Shown piece by piece: positions 6,406 to 58,677 of a stretch of DNA of 64,000 nucleotides. Made by a program: the position numbers and the translations under genes. Source of the DNA: an uncultured Bacilli bacterium (lineage in GTDB: Bacteria; Bacillota_I; Bacilli_A; RF39; UBA660); the NCBI GenBank assembly GCA_934141145.1, contig CAKPCA010000002.1, positions 3,701 through 67,700 of the forward strand, given 5' to 3'. Each line of letters starts with the position of its first letter. The stretch's first letter is position 1. The notes under the pieces were generated by a model. The model ran no database searches. It was not told the origin of the DNA and saw only the letters and a program-made list of their open reading frames with translations.

Positions 6406-7668
6406 ATGGAAATAGTTCAATTAACAAAAGAAGAATTTGATTCATATGCAGAAAATCATCCAAGTAAAAACTTCTATCAAACATCCGCTTATGGTATGTT
6501 AATGGATAGACATTCTTTTGATGATTATTATTTAGCAATGAAAGATGAAAGTGGAAATATAAAATGTGCAACATTAATTCTTATTGATAAAGTTTTTTTA
6601 GGATATAAATGGGGTTACTGCCCAAGAGGTTATTTAATTGATTTTAATGATACAGAACTATTAAAAACTTTTACAACCTTACTAAAAGAATTCTTAAAGA
6701 AAAGAAATTTTATGTTTGTTAAAATAGATCCATATATTATCTATAAATCAAGAGATAAAAAAGGAAAAGAAATTCCTGGTATTGATAATTCTAAAATTGT
6801 AAATGATTTATTAAGTTTAGGATATGAACATACTGGATTTAATTTAAATTTTGAAAACTTAAAACCAAGATGGAATGCAGTTATAACTACAGATGAATTA
6901 GATCCTATATTTTCTAGATTTAACAAAGAAACTAGAAATAAAATAAGAAAAGCTGATAAAATGGGACTTCAAGTTGTAAAAGGTGGACCAGAAAATGTTA
7001 GAGAATTTTATTCTTTAATTGATAAAAAACATTCTAGAAAATTAAATTATTATCTAGATATGTTTGAAATTTTAGGTAAAAAAGATATGTTTGAAATATA
7101 TTTTGCGGTATTAAATACTGCTAAATATGTAGAAAATAGTAAAAATCTTTTTGAAGCAGAAGAAAAAAGAAATAATGAAATTAATGAGGAATTAGAAGCA
7201 AATATAAGTAGTAATAATACTGCAAATATAATAAAGAGAAAAATGGATTCTGATGCAATATTAAATAATTATAAACAAAATATTATTAATGCGACTAATT
7301 TATATAAAGAATATCCAAGTGGTGTCGTAATTGGTGCTAATGCAATAATTAAATATAATAATGAAATATTTTTCCTAATTGACGGATATAAAAATGAATT
7401 TAAAGGATATTGTCCTAATCATTATTTAAAATATCAAATAATAGAAAGATATAGACAACAAGGATATACAAGAATGCATTTAAATGGCATTTCTGGTGAT
7501 TTTACTAAAGGTAGTACATATTATGGTTTAACTAGATTTAAACTTGGATTTGCGGCTAATATAGAGGAATATATTGGAGAATTTACTTTAGTCATTAATA
7601 AAGGGAAATATAATAGATTTAAGAAAATAAATCCTATTAGAAATTGGTTAAATCAACCAATAGCATAA
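6406..7668 (+). CDS. FemAB-family peptidoglycan interpeptide-bridge aminoacyltransferase
   Basis: 420 aa; N-domain FYQTSAYG, central coiled-coil insert, C-domain GFKLGFAANIEEYIGEF, as in FemA/FemX/FmhB; RBS AAGGAG before the ATG. Confidence 0.6.
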   Translation: MEIVQLTKEEFDSYAENHPSKNFYQTSAYGMLMDRHSFDDYYLAMKDESGNIKCATLILIDKVFLGYKWGYCPRGYLIDFNDTELLKTFTTLLKEFLKKRNFMFVKIDPYIIYKSRDKKGKEIPGIDNSKIVNDLLSLGYEHTGFNLNFENLKPRWNAVITTDELDPIFSRFNKETRNKIRKADKMGLQVVKGGPENVREFYSLIDKKHSRKLNYYLDMFEILGKKDMFEIYFAVLNTAKYVENSKNLFEAEEKRNNEINEELEANISSNNTANIIKRKMDSDAILNNYKQNIINATNLYKEYPSGVVIGANAIIKYNNEIFFLIDGYKNEFKGYCPNHYLKYQIIERYRQQGYTRMHLNGISGDFTKGSTYYGLTRFKLGFAANIEEYIGEFTLVINKGKYNRFKKINPIRNWLNQPIA

Positions 7669-7673
7669 AAAAA

Positions 7674-7695
7674 ATAACATTCAATTGAATGTTAT
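7674..7695. terminator. Bidirectional intrinsic terminator between the fem-like gene and tuf
   Basis: Perfect 22-bp palindrome ATAACATTCAA/TTGAATGTTAT flanked by A6 and T6. Confidence 0.55.
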
Positions 7696-7705
7696 TTTTT
7701 TATTA

Positions 7706-8890
7706 TTATTTATCGATTTTTGTTACGATACCAGCACCAACTGTTCTACCACCTTCACGAATAGAGAACTTAGTTCCTTCTTCAAGAGCGATAGGAGCAA
7801 TTAATTCAACATGCATCTTAACATTATCACCAGGCATAACCATTTCAGTTCCTTCTGGTAATGTTACAACACCTGTAACGTCAGTAGTTCTGAAATAGAA
7901 TTGTGGACGATAATTTGAGAAGAATGGAGTATGTCTTCCGCCTTCCTCTTTACTTAATACATAAACTTCACATTCGAATGTTGTATGTGGAGTAACTGTA
8001 CCAGGTTTTGCAAGTACTTGACCTCTTTGTACTTCTTCTCTTGAAATACCACGAAGTAATACACCAGCGTTATCTCCTGCTTCAGCGTAATCTAATTGTT
8101 TACGGAACATTTCGATACCTGTAACTACAGTTTTCTTAGTATCATGTAAACCAACGATTTCAACTTCATCATTAAGTTTTAATTGACCTCTTTCAACACG
8201 TCCTGTAACAACTGTTCCACGACCAGTGATTGTAAATACGTCTTCGATACTCATTAAGAATGGTTTTTCAGTATCTCTTTCTGGAGTTGGAATCCATTCA
8301 TCAACTGCATCTAATAATTCGTCGATTTTTTCTTCATATTTTTGATCTCCTTCAAGAGCTTTTAAAGCTGATCCGAAGATAAATGGAGTATTGTCACCAT
8401 CAAATCCATATTGATTTAATAATTCTCTAACATCCATTTCTACTAATTCTAGCATTTCTGGATCATCAACCATATCACATTTGTTAATGAATACTACCAT
8501 TCTAGGAACACCAACTTGACCAGCAAGTAAGATATGTTCTCTTGTTTGTGCCATAGCACCATCTGTTGCAGCTATAACTAGTATAGCACCATCCATTTGA
8601 GCAGCACCTGTGATCATGTTTTTAACATAGTCAGCGTGTCCTGGACAGTCAACGTGTGCATAGTGACGTTTGTCTGTTTCATATTCAACGTGTGCAGTAT
8701 TGATAGTTATACCACGTTCTCTTTCTTCTGGAGCTTTATCGATATCTGCATAGTCTTCGAATTTTGCATAACCTTTTTCTGCTTGTCTTTTAGTGATAGC
8801 AGCAGTTAAAGTTGTTTTACCATGGTCTACGTGTCCAATTGTACCAATGTTAACATGTGGTTTTCCACGGTTAAATTTTTCTTTTGCCAT
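7706..8890 (-). CDS. tuf: Elongation factor Tu
   Basis: 394 aa, [18 protein letters not shown] motifs. Confidence 0.95.
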
Positions 8891-31059: not shown

Positions 31060-31488
31060 TTATTTTTCTTTAATATTTACACTATATCTGTAATCATAAT
31101 CATTTATATCAGTATTATCCACATTACAATTACCAATTTCATTTTGTCCATAGTATATAGAAACAGATGATTCATTAATATCAATTTCTTTATTATTTTT
31201 TAGATTTTTTAAATCTTCACTATTTAAATAATTATTACTTACAAGTGTCTGTAATTTAATTTCATATGGTTCACTACATGATGCACTCTTTGCTTTTTTT
31301 AATTCACTTGAATAATCCATTATATATGAATACGCGGCAGACTTTATTATTTCTTCCATTTTTTCATAACCTTTTTCTTTTGCTCTATTTGATACATTTA
31401 AAACAAGACTAATTGATATTGTACCAATCATACCCATAATTAATATAACTGCAAGTAATTCTATTAGCGTAAATCCTTTTCTTTTCAT
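31060..31488 (-). CDS. Type IV pilin / competence pseudopilin-like protein (prepilin N-terminal methylation domain)
   Basis: MKRKG|FTLIELLAVILIMGMIG: class III leader with cleavage Gly, Phe+1, Glu+5 and a hydrophobic helix; start at the internal ATG preceded by AGGTGA; no other pilus genes nearby. Confidence 0.6.
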   Translation of the reverse strand: MKRKGFTLIELLAVILIMGMIGTISISLVLNVSNRAKEKGYEKMEEIIKSAAYSYIMDYSSELKKAKSASCSEPYEIKLQTLVSNNYLNSEDLKNLKNNKEIDINESSVSIYYGQNEIGNCNVDNTDINDYDYRYSVNIKEK

Positions 31489-48612: not shown

Positions 48613-51069
48613 TTATTCAGTAGTTTCTTCTTCGTTTTCTGATCCTTCTAATTCTTCTTTAGTAGTAGCAATTGTTGTAACTTTTTGATTTTCTTTTAAG
48701 TTAATTAATCTAACACCTTGTGTTACCCTACTCATTTTAGATACTTGATTCATAGGTATTTTAATAATAATTCCGCTATTTGTAATAATCATTAACTCTT
48801 CATCATCATTTACGTTCTTAACAGCAGCTAAATTACCATTCTTTTCTGTAACATTTAATGCTTTAACACCTTTACTACCTCTATGAGTTAAACGATATTC
48901 TTCAATATTTGTACGTTTTCCGTAACCATTTTCTGTAATAATTAATATATCGCTTGTTGGATCAACCTTTTCAGCACTTACACAAATAGCATCTTCTGGT
49001 ATTTCAATACCTTTAACACCACTTGCAGTTCTACCCATAACTCTTATTTCATTTTCATTAAATCTAACTAATCTTCCATTTGATGAACCAATAACTATTT
49101 CATTGTTACCATCAGTTTTTGTAACAAACAATAGTTCATCATCTTCTTTTAATGTAATTGCGATTTTACCACTTTTTCTAATTGAATCAAATTCTTCAAT
49201 ATTTGTTCTCTTTACTAATCCTTTTCTAGTAACAAATGTAATATAATCACTATTATCATCTTTTGAAATACTTAATATTGAATTAATTTTTTCATCTTTT
49301 TCAATTGGTAATAAGTTAATTATTGGTAGTCCTTTTGCTTGTCTACTAAATTCTGGTATCTCGTAACCCTTTATTTTATATACTTTTCCTTTATTTGAGA
49401 AGAATAATATATAATCATGAGTCTTAACTGTTACCATCTTTTCAACGAAATCTTCTTCATTAGTAGACATACCTTTAACTCCTACACCACCTTTATTTTG
49501 TACTTTATAAGTGTCTGTAGTAAGTCTTTTTATGTAACCTTTGTTCGTTAATGTAACAATTATATCTTCTACAGGTATTAATGATTCATCTTCTATATAA
49601 TCAATAGCTGTCATATCAATACTTGTTCTTCTTTCGTCAGCATATTTATCTTTAATTTCTAATAATTCTGATTTAATTATACCGAAAATTCGTTCGTCTG
49701 ACGCTAAAATTGCTTTCAAATCTTTAATTTTTTCTAATAAATCATTTAATTCGTTCTCAATTTTATCTCTTTCTAATCCTGTTAATCTTCTTAACTTCAT
49801 TTCTAGAATTGCATCTGATTGAATTTCACTTAAACCAAATTTACTCATTAAACCAGCCTTTGCTTCTTCATCTGATTTAGAGCCTCTAATTAATTTAATT
49901 ACTTCATCAATATGATCAAGTGCAATTTTTAAACCTTCTAATATATGAACTCTTTTTTCTGCTTTATCTAAGTCAAATTTTGTTCTTCTTATAATTACTT
50001 CTTTTTGATATTCAATATATTTTGAAATAATATCTTTTAATCCTAGTGTTTTTGGAACACCTTTATCTAACATTAAGAATATTATTCCGAAATTAGTTTG
50101 AAATTGTGTATGTTTATATAAATTATTTAACACAACTTGTGCATTTGCATCTTTTTTAAGTGTAATAGTTATTTTTACACCATTTTTTAAATCTGTATGG
50201 TAATCTGCTATACCTTCTATAGTTTTATTGTGGACAAGTTCTGCAACCTTATTTTTAAGTTCCATTGTATTAACACCATAAGGAACTTCATCAATAATTA
50301 TATAATGTTTACCATTTTCTTCTTCAATTCTTGCCCTACTTCTTATAGTAATGGTTCCTCTACCTGTTTCATAAGCCTTTTTAATACCACTATTTCCTAA
50401 AATAATACCACCTGTTGGGAAATCTGGTCCTTTAATATGTTCCATTAATCCAAGAGTATCAATTTCAGGATTATCTATATAAGCAATACATCCATCAATT
50501 ACTTCACCTAAGTTATGTGGTGGAATATTTGTTGCCATACCAACAGCAATACCCATAGTACCATTTACAAGAATATTTGGAAATCTTGAAGGTAATATTT
50601 CAGGTTCTTTTTCTGTTTCATCAAAGTTTGGTATGAAATTTACTGTATCTTTATTAATATCTCTTAACAATTCTAGTGAAATTTTAGAAAGTCTTGATTC
50701 AGTATAACGCATTGCGGCTGCCCCATAACCTTCTATATTACCAAAGTTACCATGTCCATCAACAAGCATATTTCTATAACTAAAATCTTGTGCCATACGA
50801 ACCATTGCTTCATATATACTTGAATCTCCATGCGGATGATATTTACCCATAACATCACCGACAATACGTGCCGATTTTTTATGAGGTTTATCTGGTGTAT
50901 AACCTGATTCATACATTGACCATAAAATTCTTCTGTGAACTGGCTTTAAACCATCTCTAAGGTCAGGTAATGCACGGGCTACAATAACACTCATTGAATA
51001 CTCTAAGAATGATGTTTCTATTTCACTTACTATGTTATTTTCTTCTAATCTATCTCTACTATGATCCAT
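48613..51069 (-). CDS. gyrA: DNA gyrase subunit A
   Basis: 818 aa, active-site Tyr region, C-terminal beta-pinwheel repeats. Confidence 0.95.
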
Positions 51070-51079
51070 GATTTACCTC

Positions 51080-54104
<3,025 letters not shown>

Positions 54105-54232
54105 TTTAAACCTATTTTTATGCTCATATTCTCACCTTTATACTAAAATAATGCTCCTATACACATACTTACATTATACCACAAAAAAGGGCATTTTTTA
54201 TACTTTTTTATAAAAATATACCCTTTTTATTA

Positions 54233-54679
54233 CTAAATACTTTTTCTTTTTCTTAAAATCGATTCTAATTTAGTTGCTCTTAAATATTGATTATCAAAAG
54301 AACCTATTGATATGTCAATTTCAACACTTTCACCATTTTCAAAATATACAATAGACTTACCATTCAAATCTTTATAATCTGTTATGTGATTAAGTGAAAA
54401 CCAAATACAATCTGATAACCTTGGCGATGTACTAGGAAAATATATCATATTTCTACTTTCTTCTATTATAATTGGAGATTTATGACTAACCCCTATTAAA
54501 CTTTTAGTACCCTCATGTCTTCCTAAATATGAGCTACCAAAATATTCACAACTTCTTTCTATTATTTTCATTGTATTCATATTTACTATAAATCTACTAT
54601 TTTTCTCTATTACTTTTGTATTAAAATCATCAATTGGTATCAAAGCTATTGTATCTTTATTGATTTCATAACAATTCAT
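54233..54679 (-). CDS. comK: ComK-family competence transcription factor homologue
   Basis: Segmental identity to B. subtilis ComK: SCEYFGSSYLGRHEGT (vs SCRFFGSSYAGRKAGT), VSHKSPIII...YFPSTSP..SDCIWFS (vs ISHKPPIMV...LFPTLSS..PQCGWIS), SFDNQYLRA (vs SFENQVYRT); RBS AGGAGG; own hairpin plus U-tract downstream. Confidence 0.7.
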   Translation of the reverse strand: MNCYEINKDTIALIPIDDFNTKVIEKNSRFIVNMNTMKIIERSCEYFGSSYLGRHEGTKSLIGVSHKSPIIIEESRNMIYFPSTSPRLSDCIWFSLNHITDYKDLNGKSIVYFENGESVEIDISIGSFDNQYLRATKLESILRKRKSI

Positions 54680-54775
54680 TTAATTTCCTCCTCTATAAAA
54701 TATTTTCTCCTTTGAAAAGAAATTTCCCTTATTTATACTCAAAAAAATTAAAAAAATTGTCATTTTATGTAAAAA

Positions 54776-54803
54776 ATGAGAAAAATATTAAATTTTTTCT
54801 CAT
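54776..54803 (-). terminator. Intrinsic terminator of dnaN
   Basis: ATGAGAAAAA-N8-TTTTTCTCAT 10-bp stem followed on the minus strand by UUUUUAC. Confidence 0.5.
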
Positions 54804-54811
54804 TTTTCATA

Positions 54812-55933
54812 CTAATATGTCTTAATTGGTAACAATAATTGTATTAAATCTTCGTCTTCATCTGTCTTTAAAATAATTGGTTTAACATCTGAATTTAATA
54901 ATATTCTTATATCTTTACTATTTATTGTTCTTAATGCTTCCATCATATATTTTGAAGAAAATGCTATTTTTATTTCATTATCATTATTCTTAGTAATTGC
55001 AAGTTTTTCCTCTACTTTACCTATTTCTGGTGTATTTGAACTTATTACAACTTCATTTCCACAAGTTTCGAATTTTATAACATTTTTCTCTTTTTCAGAA
55101 GTAAGTAATGCGGCTCTATCTATTACTTTATATAATTCATCTAAATCAGCTTTTATTTCTAATGAAAATTCTTCTGGAATAAGTCTTGATGTATCTGGGA
55201 AAGATCCATTTAATAACCTTGATTGGAATAAAATATTATCAAACTTAAATAAAATCTTATTTGAGAAAATATGAATTTCTATATTTTCATCCTCATCATT
55301 TATTATTTTAACAAGTTCACCCATATTTTTACCTGGTATAACTATATTTATAATGTTATCCACAGGATTATCAAGTCTTACTATTTTTTTAGATAATCTA
55401 TATGAATCTGTAGCAATGCATTCCATCTTATCATTTTCTATTTTAATATTAATACCTGTTAATATAGGTCTAGATTCTTGCATAGATGTTGCAAATAAAG
55501 TTTGATTAACAATATTTTTTATTACTTTTTTACTTAATATTATTGGATTAATTGAATTTTCTAAATTAATGTTAGGAAATTCATTAGGATCTATTCCATT
55601 TAAATTGAAATTAGAATTTTGAGAATTGATTAATATTTTAAGTCCATCTATTATTTCTATATTAATTAATCCTTCTGGTAATTTTCTAACTATTTCAAGT
55701 AAATATTTTCCTTGAATAACAATTGTTCCTAAACTTTCTATTTTATCTATATATTTTTTATCTATAAAACTTTCTATATCTATTTCATTATTTGTAGCAG
55801 TTAAGAATAAACCTTCATTAGTAAGATTAAATTTTATTCCTCCTAATACAGGTATAACATTTTTAGAAGATACCGCCTTTGATACATTATTTAAATTTTC
55901 TAATAATAATTCTTTTTTTATACTAAATTTCAT
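54812..55933 (-). CDS. dnaN: DNA polymerase III beta sliding clamp
   Basis: 373 aa, three-domain clamp, dnaA-dnaN order. Confidence 0.9.
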   Translation of the reverse strand: MKFSIKKELLLENLNNVSKAVSSKNVIPVLGGIKFNLTNEGLFLTATNNEIDIESFIDKKYIDKIESLGTIVIQGKYLLEIVRKLPEGLINIEIIDGLKILINSQNSNFNLNGIDPNEFPNINLENSINPIILSKKVIKNIVNQTLFATSMQESRPILTGINIKIENDKMECIATDSYRLSKKIVRLDNPVDNIINIVIPGKNMGELVKIINDEDENIEIHIFSNKILFKFDNILFQSRLLNGSFPDTSRLIPEEFSLEIKADLDELYKVIDRAALLTSEKEKNVIKFETCGNEVVISSNTPEIGKVEEKLAITKNNDNEIKIAFSSKYMMEALRTINSKDIRILLNSDVKPIILKTDEDEDLIQLLLPIKTY

Positions 55934-56111
55934 AAAAACCCTCCTAGCCTCAAAATCATTATATCATATTATTATTTAAATTTATGTTATTTTTATTATT
56001 ACTGTTGAAAATGTGCATAACTTTGTTTTTCTTTGTAATTTAAAGGATTTTTTTATTTTTTCCTGTGCAATACTTTTTAATAACAAAGTTTATAACTTTT
56101 ATTTATCCACA
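55934..56111. other. oriC downstream module (dnaA-dnaN spacer): DnaA boxes plus AT-rich unwinding region
   Basis: Perfect TTATCCACA at 56103-56111, TGTGCATAA at 56012-56020 (1 mismatch, inverted), and long A/T tracts. Confidence 0.55.
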
Positions 56112-57479
56112 TTACTCTAATTTTTTCTTAATTTCATTAATTATTTTTTCTAGTTGTTTATTACTTTTTATCTCATCTGCAATCTTATCACATGAGTGTA
56201 TTACTGTTGAATGATCTCTTCCACCAAATTCCATACCTATTCTTGGAAAAGATTCATCCGTTAACTGCCTTGATAGGTATATTGCAATTTGTCTTGGGAA
56301 AGCAATAGTTGCTACCCTTTTCTTTGATTTTAAATCATCCACAGAAACATTATAATATTCTGCAACTACTCTTTGTATCTTTTGTATATCATTTTTAAAG
56401 TTTGTAGAAGAAGTAATAGTTCCTTTTAAAGCTTCTATTGCTAAATCAAGAGTAATCTCTTCTTGAAAGAATATTGTTGAATAAGCACAAACTCTAGTTA
56501 AAGCCCCCTCCAAACTTCTTACATCAGAATGACACATATTAGCAATATATTCTATTGCATCTTCACTCATATGACTAGAAAAATCCATATTATTCATTTT
56601 TTTTCTTAATATTTCTTTTCTAAGTTCATTATCTGGTGGAAAAATATTAACTTTTAATCCCCAATTAAATCTAGTTCTAAGTCTATCTTCTAGATGTTTT
56701 AAATCATCTGGAGAACTATCTGATGATATAATTATTTGTTTTTTATCATCATATAATGTATTAAATGTATGGAAAAATTCATTTTGTGTTTTAGGTGCAT
56801 TTCCTAAAAATTGAATATCATCAATTATAAGTACATCGATATTCCTATATTTATCTTTAAATAAATCAACATAGTCAAAATTTGTTCCTTCTTTATCCCT
56901 TTTATTTAAACCAAGAAAATCATTTATAAACTGATCACTTGTAACATATAAAACTCTTTTATTGGTATTTTGTATTATATAATTACCAATGGCTTGCATT
57001 AAATGAGTCTTCCCTAGTCCACTATTTCCATATATAAATAAAGGATTATACATTTTTCCAGGATTTTCAGCAACAGCAAGTGCAGTTGCTTGTGCAAATC
57101 TATTACTCTCACCTACTATAAAATTTTCAAATGTATAATCTGGGTTTAGATTTGCTTTCTCAGGACTATTATAAGGAACACCAATTTCTTCTTGTTTGTT
57201 TTCCACAGGTTTCTTTATATTTTGTTTATTATATTCATTTTCGAGTAAAAACTCTATATTAAAGTTAGTACCAGTGATTTCATTGAATATTTCACTAATT
57301 ATATCTATATATGATTCAGCAAGATGTTTTTTATGAGCAATTGTAGGAACAATAATAATAGCATGTTCTTCATTTAGTTCAACAAGTTTTGAATCTTTAA
57401 ACCACGTATTATATGATAAAGTATTCATTCTCTTACTTATAGTACTTAAAAAATTATTCCAAATACTTTCAATATTCAT
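56112..57479 (-). CDS. dnaA: Chromosomal replication initiator DnaA
   Basis: 455 aa, AAA+ GNSGLGKTHL, C-terminal DnaA-box-binding HTH. Confidence 0.95.
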   Translation of the reverse strand: MNIESIWNNFLSTISKRMNTLSYNTWFKDSKLVELNEEHAIIIVPTIAHKKHLAESYIDIISEIFNEITGTNFNIEFLLENEYNKQNIKKPVENKQEEIGVPYNSPEKANLNPDYTFENFIVGESNRFAQATALAVAENPGKMYNPLFIYGNSGLGKTHLMQAIGNYIIQNTNKRVLYVTSDQFINDFLGLNKRDKEGTNFDYVDLFKDKYRNIDVLIIDDIQFLGNAPKTQNEFFHTFNTLYDDKKQIIISSDSSPDDLKHLEDRLRTRFNWGLKVNIFPPDNELRKEILRKKMNNMDFSSHMSEDAIEYIANMCHSDVRSLEGALTRVCAYSTIFFQEEITLDLAIEALKGTITSSTNFKNDIQKIQRVVAEYYNVSVDDLKSKKRVATIAFPRQIAIYLSRQLTDESFPRIGMEFGGRDHSTVIHSCDKIADEIKSNKQLEKIINEIKKKLE

Positions 57480-57786
57480 AAAACCACCTCCCCTGAATTA
57501 TAGATAGTTTATAGACTTATAAATTAATTATAAACTTAAAATTTTATGTTTTCAAGTAACAAAAAATTATAAACAATACTTATCCACAACAAATGTGTAT
57601 TATTTTCTATATAAAATAAGGAATTTTATAAGTTATAAACATTTTCCACAAATTAACAATAAACAGTTTAATTATAAACAATACGAACTTATCAACAATA
57701 CTGTTTATAATGTGTATAACTTTGTTTAGCTTTATATTATAAACAAAAAATAAAAAAATTTCCACAGTAAATGTGAAAATAATTTA
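57480..57786. other. oriC upstream module: DnaA-box cluster and dnaA promoter region
   Basis: Perfect TTATCCACA at 57579-57587; TTTTCCACA at 57642-57650; ATTTCCACA at 57758-57766; at least 5 copies of TTATAAACA-like degenerate boxes. Confidence 0.6.
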
Positions 57787-58431
57787 TTATCTTTTAAAAG
57801 GATTACCATTTTCCTCTGGATTATTATAAATATCAATATTTTTTCTTTTTAGTTTATCTTCTATTTTTCTTCTTTCAATGTTCCTTTTATTAATCTCAAC
57901 TTCTTCATCAATTAATTTACCTGTTTCTTGTGATGCCATTTTATCACAAACCATTTTATCGATTAAATCATTAATTATAATTATTTCATTTTTAAGTAGT
58001 AATGCATCTTCTCCACTATATTTTTCACACATTACATTAATACTTTCATTTATATAATCTAGATTTGCTTCTAATTTTCCAATATCTTCTAAAGGTGGTT
58101 CTATTAAATTTATTTTTATATCAATTTTGTTTCTTATTAGGTCTCTAAAATTTTGAAATTCTGTGTCAGCGTTTAAAACACTTCTAACTTTACTCATATG
58201 AGAATTTACAATTACTTCACTTTCCTTATAATCATTATCATAGTTTCTTTTAACAAAATCTAAATCACCACTTACAGGAACATGACAAATTGTATTTGCA
58301 TCCCCTTCCCTAAATCTTCTTTTAATTTCATTAATTTCTTCAAGTTGTTTTCTATCACTTTCCTCTACACTTTTTAAATATTTGTATCTAACTAGAAGTT
58401 CTTTTAATTTTTTTTCCTTATCAAATAGCAT
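57787..58431 (-). CDS. Hypothetical coiled-coil protein (214 aa) embedded in the origin region between rpmH and the DnaA-box cluster
   Basis: ATG at 58431 with RBS AGGTAGGAG (7-nt spacer); charged coiled-coil-like N- and C-termini; no recognisable domain; the track's longer version is antisense to rpmH and rejected. Confidence 0.5.
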   Translation of the reverse strand: MLFDKEKKLKELLVRYKYLKSVEESDRKQLEEINEIKRRFREGDANTICHVPVSGDLDFVKRNYDNDYKESEVIVNSHMSKVRSVLNADTEFQNFRDLIRNKIDIKINLIEPPLEDIGKLEANLDYINESINVMCEKYSGEDALLLKNEIIIINDLIDKMVCDKMASQETGKLIDEEVEINKRNIERRKIEDKLKRKNIDIYNNPEENGNPFKR

Positions 58432-58493
58432 ATATATTCTCCTACCTTTATCTATGATTGTACAAGAAATTGTATTATTTTTCAATAAAAATC

Positions 58494-58522
58494 TTGACTT
58501 TATGGTAAAAAGTATATATAAT
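58494..58522 (+). promoter_or_regulatory. Sigma-A promoter of rpmH-rnpA (TTGACT-17-TATAAT)
   Basis: TTGACT at 58494-58499, TATAAT at 58517-58522, exact 17-nt spacer, ~30 nt upstream of the rpmH RBS GGAGG. Confidence 0.5.
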
Positions 58523-58554
58523 TGAAATGTTTTTATGAACTTGGAGGTGCAAAA

Positions 58555-58677
58555 ATGAAAAGAACTTTTCAGCCTAATAATAGAAAAAAAGCAAAGAAAC
58601 ACGGATTTTTTTCTAGAATAAAAGGTAAGGTATTAAATAGCAGAAGAAAAAAAGGACGCAAACAATTATGTAAATAA
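58555..58677 (+). CDS. rpmH: 50S ribosomal protein L34
   Basis: [40 protein letters not shown] (40 aa; below the ORF-track cutoff); RBS GGAGG. Confidence 0.85.

Follow-up and report, generated by a model that had tools for sequence, protein, structure and literature searches.

The closest described counterparts of the gene considered here are two ComK-family proteins of the genus Bacillus. In Bacillus subtilis, Spo0A~P binds directly to the comK promoter (PMC3297582), and the C-terminus of the ComK protein carries a MecA-dependent ClpCP degron (FMLYPKEERT...GERY) that lies beyond residue 157 (PMC8138137). Removal of the last 25 residues leaves a protein that binds DNA and has lost the activation of comG (PMC3128618). 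In Bacillus cereus, ComK2 is naturally short by 22 amino acids (aa) and lowers comG expression (PMC3128618), coexisting with a full-length ComK1 and opposing its effect. Here, we describe a comK gene (positions 54233-54679, minus strand) from a 64-kb stretch of DNA (the window, contig CAKPCA010000002.1 of assembly GCA_934141145.1) of an uncultured Bacilli bacterium in the order RF39. This gene is predicted to encode a functional single-domain, or minimal, ComK-family DNA-binding transcription factor. We lean, by a modest degree, toward regarding it as the resident ComK of a lineage of uncultured gut Bacilli (RF39, CAG-433-like), acting as an origin-proximal and Spo0A-gated regulator of competence or recombination.

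When set beside B. subtilis ComK, the RF39 protein is alike in that the Pfam family PF06338 is matched along the whole domain, the signature motifs are kept, and, judging from the arrays found in relatives, the comK promoter is an apparent direct target of Spo0A (PMC3297582). It is unlike B. subtilis ComK in lacking about 8 N-terminal and about 35 C-terminal residues (the latter including the degron and the activation region), in being encoded at dnaN-recF beside the replication origin (oriC), whereas the B. subtilis gene occupies a distant locus, and in having no detectable K-box (paired A4N5T4 motifs) upstream of its gene. Among described relatives, B. cereus ComK2 comes closest in form, being likewise a ComK-family protein without the C-terminal region important for activation (PMC3128618), but this is an accessory paralogue. 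In contrast to ComK2 and its 22 missing residues, the RF39 form is short by about 35 aa and is the only ComK seen in the lineage, across more than 80 species. Our literature searches for dnaN-comK-recF synteny, 0A-box arrays at comK outside Bacillus, ComK in RF39, and natural competence in RF39 returned nothing relevant.

The ComK protein and its occurrence in the lineage

The 148-aa product, which begins at an ATG start codon, matches the PF06338 model with an E-value of 2.7e-48 (164 bits against a gathering score of 22.3) over model positions 3-151 of 152. An earlier reading of the stretch from its letters alone (hereafter, the sequence-only reading) had assigned the gene to the ComK family and named a hidden Markov model search as the check, and the assignment stands. 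Moreover, the product aligns with residues 9-157 of B. subtilis ComK at 39% identity over 149 aa. The C-terminus of the B. subtilis sequence used here agrees with the published one (PMC8138137). Each motif listed in the sequence-only reading is indeed aligned, and the blocks common to both proteins are SCxxFGSSYxGR, SHKxPI, FPTxSxxxxxCxW, and SFxNQ. While the protein is shorter, as had been stated, the missing 45 or so residues are not all C-terminal. Because the alignment runs from residue 9 to 157 of B. subtilis ComK, the 44-aa difference divides into about 8 residues at the N-terminal and about 35 at the C-terminal end. Across 55 homologues, 34 residues are invariant, including the signature blocks shared with B. 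subtilis ComK, and an AlphaFold2 model of the 148-aa protein has a confident fold, with a predicted local distance difference test (pLDDT) score of 92.8. A sequence search of the PDB with a ComK profile gave no solved ComK and only a chance match (E=0.075).

We also considered whether comK is a remnant that is decaying or has no function, or else a wrongly called open reading frame (ORF) in A/T-rich DNA, as might be supposed from the lack of any model match in an NCBIfam scan of the protein and from the degenerate promoter boxes in the window. Against this are the strong and full-length Pfam match, an intact gene of 146-158 aa in 81 complete loci, and the conserved architecture of the ribosome-binding site (RBS), promoter, and leader, along with ratios of nonsynonymous to synonymous substitution (dN/dS) far below 1. 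These ratios lie between 0.02 and 0.28 for comK in 17 orthologue pairs, the same range as for dnaN (0-0.18) and recF (0-0.27), and comK is under purifying selection. With the Pfam match, intact loci, and dN/dS effectively refuting it, we accord the idea of a remnant or mis-called ORF a negligible probability.

The last residue of the protein corresponds to R157 of B. subtilis ComK. The protein therefore has neither the C-terminal degron nor the last ~25 residues needed for activation, two features that characterize the B. subtilis-type switch, and from its sequence the RF39 protein is a natural core-only ComK. Since the degron segment is absent, the MecA-ComS proteolytic switch of B. subtilis cannot act in that form, and control of comK would then be mainly transcriptional.

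Database searches with the protein returned 586 homologues, with lengths that nearly all fall at 146-158 aa, and the best 120 of which are 144-167 aa in length (almost all 146-153 aa). Where names are given, these read 'competence protein ComK [Bacilli bacterium]' and come from gut metagenome-assembled genomes (MAGs); a ComK annotation is thus already in public MAG records. The exact protein of the window is present on 17 metagenome contigs, with the same context at every place shown. The GyrA and GyrB of the window are both 99% identical to those of Clostridium sp. CAG:433, and the family CAG-433 belongs to the GTDB order RF39 (PMC8035907), a prevalent, uncultured, and genome-reduced gut order (PMC6784871) that is predicted to sporulate (PMC10868615). 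This prediction agrees with the look of a spore-former remarked on in the sequence-only reading, as do the spore-linked genes encoded in the window (YabP, YabG, SpoVT, and SpoVG), which also encodes a SigH-like sigma factor.

For synteny among relatives, one genome per species was scanned, giving 182 loci, and the best 80 of these were used for counts (L-numbers, such as L001, label the related loci and contigs compared). Of the 80 species-level loci, 57 have the complete order dnaA-dnaN-comK-recF-gyrB-gyrA, which extends the dnaN-comK-recF arrangement, proposed earlier as something to test in relatives, to loci with DnaA identities to the window as low as 47%. A further 3 loci end at a contig edge and are consistent with the dnaA-to-gyrA order. 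The spacer between dnaN and comK is usually 86-157 bp, and that between comK and recF is 92-195 bp in 57/57 loci. Extra genes are found in the dnaN-comK spacer of L010/L011 (5117-6000; a 203-aa membrane-anchored low-complexity protein), L066 (4815-6000; a 340-aa protein), and L079, and the comK-recF junction is never interrupted among the syntenic loci. In 21 loci, comK instead comes after pcrA-ligA, with gatCAB or cca-dnaD-nth next in order. As the ComKs of this second context group as a single clade inside those of the origin context in a (crude) neighbour-joining tree, the dnaN-recF placement appears to be ancestral for the lineage.

No assembly occurs twice among the 80 best loci, and thus comK seems to be the only ComK of the lineage. 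In fact, all 82 lineage ComKs examined are short (134-158 aa, the 134-aa one being cut by a contig end), with no long partner seen. The sequence-only reading had offered, as an alternative, a repurposed paralogue placed beside the replication initiation genes; the synteny in 57 of 80 species, the single occurrence per assembly, and the purifying selection speak instead for the conserved ComK of the lineage.

When window positions 48,800-57,700 were compared with L010 (Clostridium sp. CAG:433), we noticed a nucleotide identity of about 98% across gyrA and gyrB that drops abruptly at the 3' end of recF (~53,050) to 57-90% through recF, comK, dnaN, and dnaA. Beyond this breakpoint, the window is at least as similar to another species (L002) as to CAG:433. 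By this pattern, the origin genes of the window belong to a recombination mosaic of at least 4.7 kb.

Tandem repeats upstream of comK and spo0A

Alignment of the DNA upstream of comK from all loci revealed TTCGACA repeats situated just upstream of an extended -10 element, TGnTATAAg/a. The TCGACA core has a density of 7.9/kb within 130 nt upstream of comK versus 0.084/kb elsewhere in the loci, which amounts to a 95-fold difference. When direct repeats were analysed by autocorrelation over 81 loci, the sole peaks were at 10 bp (117 versus 4.6 expected) and 20 bp (60 versus 3.7). Moreover, an iterated position weight matrix (PWM) with the consensus (A/T)TTCGACAAA identified 95 sites in 55 of 81 loci, and the distance between neighbouring sites is exactly 10 bp in 21 pairs and 20 bp in 10 pairs. 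On both strands of about 980 kb of related sequence there are 45 phased pairs, and 39 of them are upstream of comK. These arrays accompany comK in both the origin and the pcrA-ligA contexts. The comK promoter of L072 has three perfect boxes, and that of L021 shows a TCTACA variant.

The binding site of Spo0A, the 0A box, is TGTCGAA, in which the protein contacts G2, C4, and G5 (PMC3485338). TTCGACA is the reverse complement of this box, and G2, C4, and G5 are the best-conserved positions in the arrays. A 7-bp box with a 3-bp spacer, repeated head-to-tail, is also how Spo0A dimers are arranged on DNA in the Spo0A-DNA crystal structure. As an independent test, metagenome contigs were scanned with TTCGACA-WWW-TTCGACA and 120 matches were read. 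The array is found 55-217 nt upstream of spo0A and in the same orientation in 7 of these 120 sampled contigs (Spo0A_C by Pfam), adjoins spo0A but points the other way in at least 5 further ones, and is upstream of comK in 4. Among the spo0A contigs with identical arrays are Clostridia-like ones with 56-60% G+C. The A/T-rich Spo0A proteins belong to a large family labelled 'Spo0A [Bacilli bacterium]', similar to the label of the comK-bearing MAGs, and have the same arrays at their promoters. The spo0A gene itself is a classic autoregulated target of Spo0A (PMC3485338). Given that the arrays are shared with spo0A and that Spo0A~P binds the comK promoter in B. subtilis, we infer that the lineage's comK promoter is a direct Spo0A target with predicted sites.

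Alternatively, the TTCGACA repeats might be weak DnaA boxes, placing comK under DnaA or replication-stress control, or else autoregulatory sites of a divergent ComK. For the former, TTTTCGACA and TTTTCCACA are one base apart, the boxes fit a relaxed DnaA-box consensus at 8/9 positions, comK adjoins oriC, and in one clade the repeats are also inside the DnaA-box cluster upstream of dnaA. For the latter, comK of B. subtilis is autoregulated (PMC3297582). Yet the G of CGACA is near-invariant (0.98), with no CCACA variant in any comK promoter, whereas the genuine DnaA boxes of these genomes are T(T/A)TCCACA and cluster around dnaA. Where comK is at the ligA locus, far from oriC, the arrays are there too. 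Also against these versions are the identical arrays that precede spo0A, those on Clostridia-like contigs included, and the 7-bp box and 3-bp spacer known from head-to-tail Spo0A sites. Altogether, we find both versions improbable, and DnaA boxes in particular were rejected for the near-invariant G, the arrays at the ligA locus, and the same arrays before spo0A.

Four of the 45 phased pairs are those inside the DnaA-box cluster upstream of dnaA, all in a single clade (L019 ~2955, L024 ~2953, L034 ~78, and L038 ~2951). Here, the tandem repeats are TTCGACAnnnTTCGACT, about 295 bp before dnaA, and recall Spo0A binding in the oriC of B. subtilis, inside which Spo0A boxes are known. Arrays are also found before soj/parA (L144, three boxes) and before a gene for a 204-aa soluble orphan histidine kinase (L200), both on A/T-rich metagenome contigs, and these two genes are possible further Spo0A targets. 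In L097 (2331-4860) and L194 (4786-7315), which are contigs of 34-35% G+C, three consecutive tandem spo0A-like genes lie by a TGTCGAA-N3-TGTCGAA array.

The promoters of spoIIG and spoIIE have an overlong spacing of 20-22 nt between the -35-like and -10 elements. The lineage's comK promoters resemble these, and those of spo0A, in having head-to-tail 0A boxes at 10 bp and a -35-like element 20-21 nt from the -10. They differ in that the gene controlled would be comK, that the boxes in the window are degenerate, and that in many relatives the proximal box is 11-12 nt from the -10. With the caveat that automatic -10 calls are noisy, the proximal box is 11-12 nt from the -10 in 16 loci and 20-21 nt in 9 loci; the 11-12-nt position could repress as well as activate. 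The spoIIGA promoter on a related gut contig (L209, 10400-10465) reads TAACACA-AAA-CGACACA, 21 nt, TATAAT, and has the same overlong-spacer design as comK in the window.

In the window itself, a probable -10 element for comK (TATAAA; 54732-54737, minus strand), after which comes AUAAGGGA at the leader start, fits the position of the TGnTATAAg/a elements of relatives. Upstream of it are two degenerate 0A-box-like repeats (54758-54774, minus strand), TTTTACA (54774-54768) and AATGACA (54764-54758), which are 10 bp apart. The proximal repeat is -35-like, reading ATGACA, 20 nt, TATAAA (54737-54732), and this spacing falls within the non-optimal range of 20-22 nt. Moreover, the two repeats align with the TTCGACA boxes of the close relatives L001, L003, L006, and L008. 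The two-box frame is kept in the closest relatives, with TCGACA in L003, L006, and L008 and degenerate boxes in L002 and L005. Weak boxes are normal at promoters activated by Spo0A (PMC3485338).

Transcription signals and neighbouring genes

The genes from dnaA to gyrA are on the minus strand. Upstream of comK are dnaN (54812-55933; Pfam DNA_pol3_beta) and dnaA (56112-57479), and downstream is recF (52983-54104), the 3' end of which overlaps gyrB (51080-53026), with gyrA following. The position between dnaN and recF, as first read, is borne out by the ORF coordinates and by tblastn synteny. The same spot had been described as normally taken by an S4-domain yaaA gene; a tblastn search with a B. 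subtilis YaaA query found no S4/YaaA-like gene at the locus, in the window, or in the 82 loci (about 980 kb of related sequence).

Seven nucleotides before the comK ATG is the RBS GAGGAGG (54687-54693, minus strand), and a GGAGG-type RBS precedes comK in all relatives. An intrinsic terminator follows comK as a hairpin with T6 (54184-54228, minus strand), which folds at -16.2 kcal/mol (z=-4.67). Between dnaN and comK is the intrinsic terminator of dnaN (54770-54809, minus strand), an A/T-rich hairpin with a T-run that folds at -14.5 kcal/mol (z=-4.70), with 0/200 shuffles as stable. A consensus terminator scan of the locus found nothing, missing both terminators because it requires G+C-rich stems and these are A/T-rich, and was replaced by folding. 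In relatives, a terminator-like hairpin separates comK and recF in 33 of 57.

For recF, the promoter has an extended -10 of the TRTGnTATAAT type (TGgTATAAT; 54173-54181, minus strand), which is present in all 57 syntenic loci and mostly 75-87 nt upstream of the recF ATG. An RBS and terminator belonging to comK and an extended -10 belonging to recF had all been claimed in the sequence-only reading, and the three are upheld. With terminators on both sides and an independent recF promoter in 57/57 loci, comK is set off as a predicted transcription unit of its own, insulated from dnaN and recF.

An alignment of 57 recF leaders showed that of the window (54101-54168, minus strand) to open with a conserved GTATGTGTATAGGAGCA (54168-54152) and to contain a mini-ORF (54127-54101). 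Across the syntenic loci, GTATGTATAGGAG(C/T)A comes directly after TRTGnTATAAT. In the CAG-433-like subset, the mini-ORF has 8 codons (MSIKIGLK, then a stop) and a strong RBS, and its stop overlaps the recF ATG, itself with a weak RBS; this overlap suggests translational coupling. Rfam searches around the locus, including the recF leader, gave nothing either at the gathering threshold or at E≤1.

The 5' untranslated region of comK (54680-54731 in the window, minus strand; compared in L001-L081) opens with AUAGRGGA. A hairpin occupies the same place in this leader across lineages, its stem sequences being unrelated, and in some leaders it is formed by an inverted 0A-box pair, TTCGACA..TGTCGAA. 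In the window, the leader fold pairs UUUCUUUUC with GAGGAGGAA of the RBS. Taken singly, the comK leader hairpins are no more stable than shuffles.

A DnaA-box cluster forming part of oriC lies between dnaA and dnaN (56012-56111), about 1.3 kb from comK, and matches to TTATCCACA with at most 1 mismatch are at 56012, 56103, and 56335. A second DnaA-box cluster is upstream of dnaA (57580-57719). Between this second cluster and rnpA is an ORF (57787-58602, minus strand) of at most 271 aa, probably shorter in view of an internal ATG, with a coiled-coil-like product and no Pfam match.

Candidate targets and the proposed role of comK

K-box-like matches in the window, counted as A4N5T4 pairs at spacings of 8, 18, and 31, number 5 against 3.3 expected, which is chance level, and across the loci the region before comK has no more of them than the region before dnaN. 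The sequence-only reading, which had seen no convincing K-boxes upstream of comK, is borne out in this respect. The two K-box-like matches that flank comK coincide with the A-tract and T-tract arms of terminator hairpins. One is a type-II-like match with 2 mismatches (54753-54796) that overlaps the dnaN terminator and shows no enrichment versus controls, and the comK terminator (54184-54228) is also an A4N5T4 match with 2 mismatches. As for recF, it is not likely to be a ComK target because it has its own TRTGnTATAAT in 57/57 loci and a terminator-like hairpin follows comK in 33 of them.

The prepilin-like gene previously pointed out at 31060-31488 (minus strand) is real, has an N_methyl match in Pfam, and is located between veg and spoVG. 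A relative of this gene (38% identical) is 5 kb upstream of comK in L081 (10001-10393); in L018, the gene immediately after comK is pilin-like and codes for at least 589 aa (6754-8523). In these uncultured Bacilli, genes with an N_methyl match stand singly, with housekeeping and sporulation genes around them. Four N_methyl copies surround dnaE and spoIIGA-sigE-sigG in L209, and two copies are present in L210. Giant versions of 589 to 980 aa with Ig-like domains come directly after comK (L018) or spo0A (L213-L216). Neither a pilus ATPase nor a platform gene was seen near these N_methyl genes. The homologues of the window's pilin-like protein (32 matches, fast-evolving) have housekeeping contexts and no com operons. 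Because N_methyl genes are widely scattered in the lineage, the link between the prepilin gene and comK is weak.

Several observations weigh against comK being a Spo0A-gated regulator of competence or recombination. K-box-like matches before comK, recF, and the pilin gene do not rise above background, and the ComK regulon is an assumed one; comG, comE, and comF genes are absent from the 64-kb window and from the flanks read from relatives, and the window likewise has no dprA or ssbB. The window boxes, TTTTACA and AATGACA, match at 5/7 positions each and are below the PWM threshold, and Spo0A control of the window's own comK would be an extrapolation from relatives. In a subclade with the ligA context, TCTACA replaces TCGACA, altering a base that Spo0A contacts. 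The source genome was read over the 64-kb window, and spo0A is a presumed gene in it. Finally, a protein shorter by 35 aa may not be a B. subtilis-type activator, a doubt that arises because ComK without its last 25 residues is inactive at comG and because ComK2 lowers comG expression.

It is conceivable that ComK has been repurposed as a short DNA-binding repressor or modulator of replication, repair, or sporulation-associated genes near the origin, in a lineage that is not transformable. The 35 C-terminal residues absent from the product include the activation and tetramerisation region, and the truncated B. subtilis ComK binds DNA without activating comG while B. cereus ComK2 decreases comG (PMC3128618). 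Moreover, the neighbours of comK are always DNA-metabolism genes (dnaN/recF or pcrA/ligA), no com operon is found in any sequence read (the window and the flanks of relatives), and RF39 genomes are strongly reduced (PMC6784871). Nonetheless, all 82 lineage ComKs are short and have no long partner, and hence the short form must be self-sufficient. The independent and constitutive-looking recF promoter in 57/57 loci also runs counter to such a modulator, as do the prepilin-type genes in the window and near comK in L018 and L081. In addition, the sharp break in identity to CAG:433 at recF/gyrB indicates that homologous recombination with diverged DNA occurs in the lineage. On this evidence, we hold a repurposed modulator to be unlikely, albeit the most serious of the alternatives.

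Under the reading that we prefer, with comK as the lineage's resident, Spo0A-gated regulator, the gene would be transcribed from a sigma-A-type promoter with an extended -10, preceded and overlapped by one to three head-to-tail Spo0A boxes with 10-bp phasing in a spoIIG-like layout. Spo0A~P would then directly gate comK as cells pass into stationary phase or sporulation. The promoter of the window would preserve this geometry (two boxes 10 bp apart and a 20-nt spacer) with degenerate boxes, and, in a protein without a degron, regulation of comK would rest mainly on transcription. The ComK produced would bind A/T-rich sites and switch on, or modulate, a small late-competence or DNA-recombination regulon. 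If pneumococcal comCDE is a guide, the origin-proximal seat of comK would provide maximal copy number and a dosage tied to replication status. In Streptococcus pneumoniae, comCDE is said, in work from 2014 attributed to Slager et al., to be near oriC and to rise in copy number under replication stress. The two systems are alike in keeping the gene of a master competence regulator beside oriC. They are unlike in that ComDE is a two-component system and the RF39 protein belongs to the ComK family, and the dosage effect in RF39 is deduced from position alone.

Taken further, a bare-core ComK wired to both Spo0A~P and the copy number of the origin would make up a two-component developmental circuit running from Spo0A to ComK and devoid of the MecA/ClpCP/ComS layer, in an RF39 that is transformable or undergoes ComK-driven recombination at the onset of sporulation; this fuller version we put forward tentatively and think doubtful. 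The arrangement would represent a stripped-down natural form of the Bacillus competence switch, having no degron, a sporulation-like promoter, and a fixed seat by oriC. Both the direct gating of comK by Spo0A and the origin-dosage effect are testable with a few promoter and protein constructs.

RF39 is a little known order that is prevalent in the human and animal gut. Since comK is under purifying selection in such small genomes, it can be argued that a ComK-controlled programme is kept. This programme is most plausibly one of DNA uptake or recombination, and it bears on gene flow in the gut. If the fuller version of the circuit is true, a widespread, never-cultured, and genome-reduced order of the human gut would be naturally transformable or would run ComK-driven recombination at the onset of sporulation.

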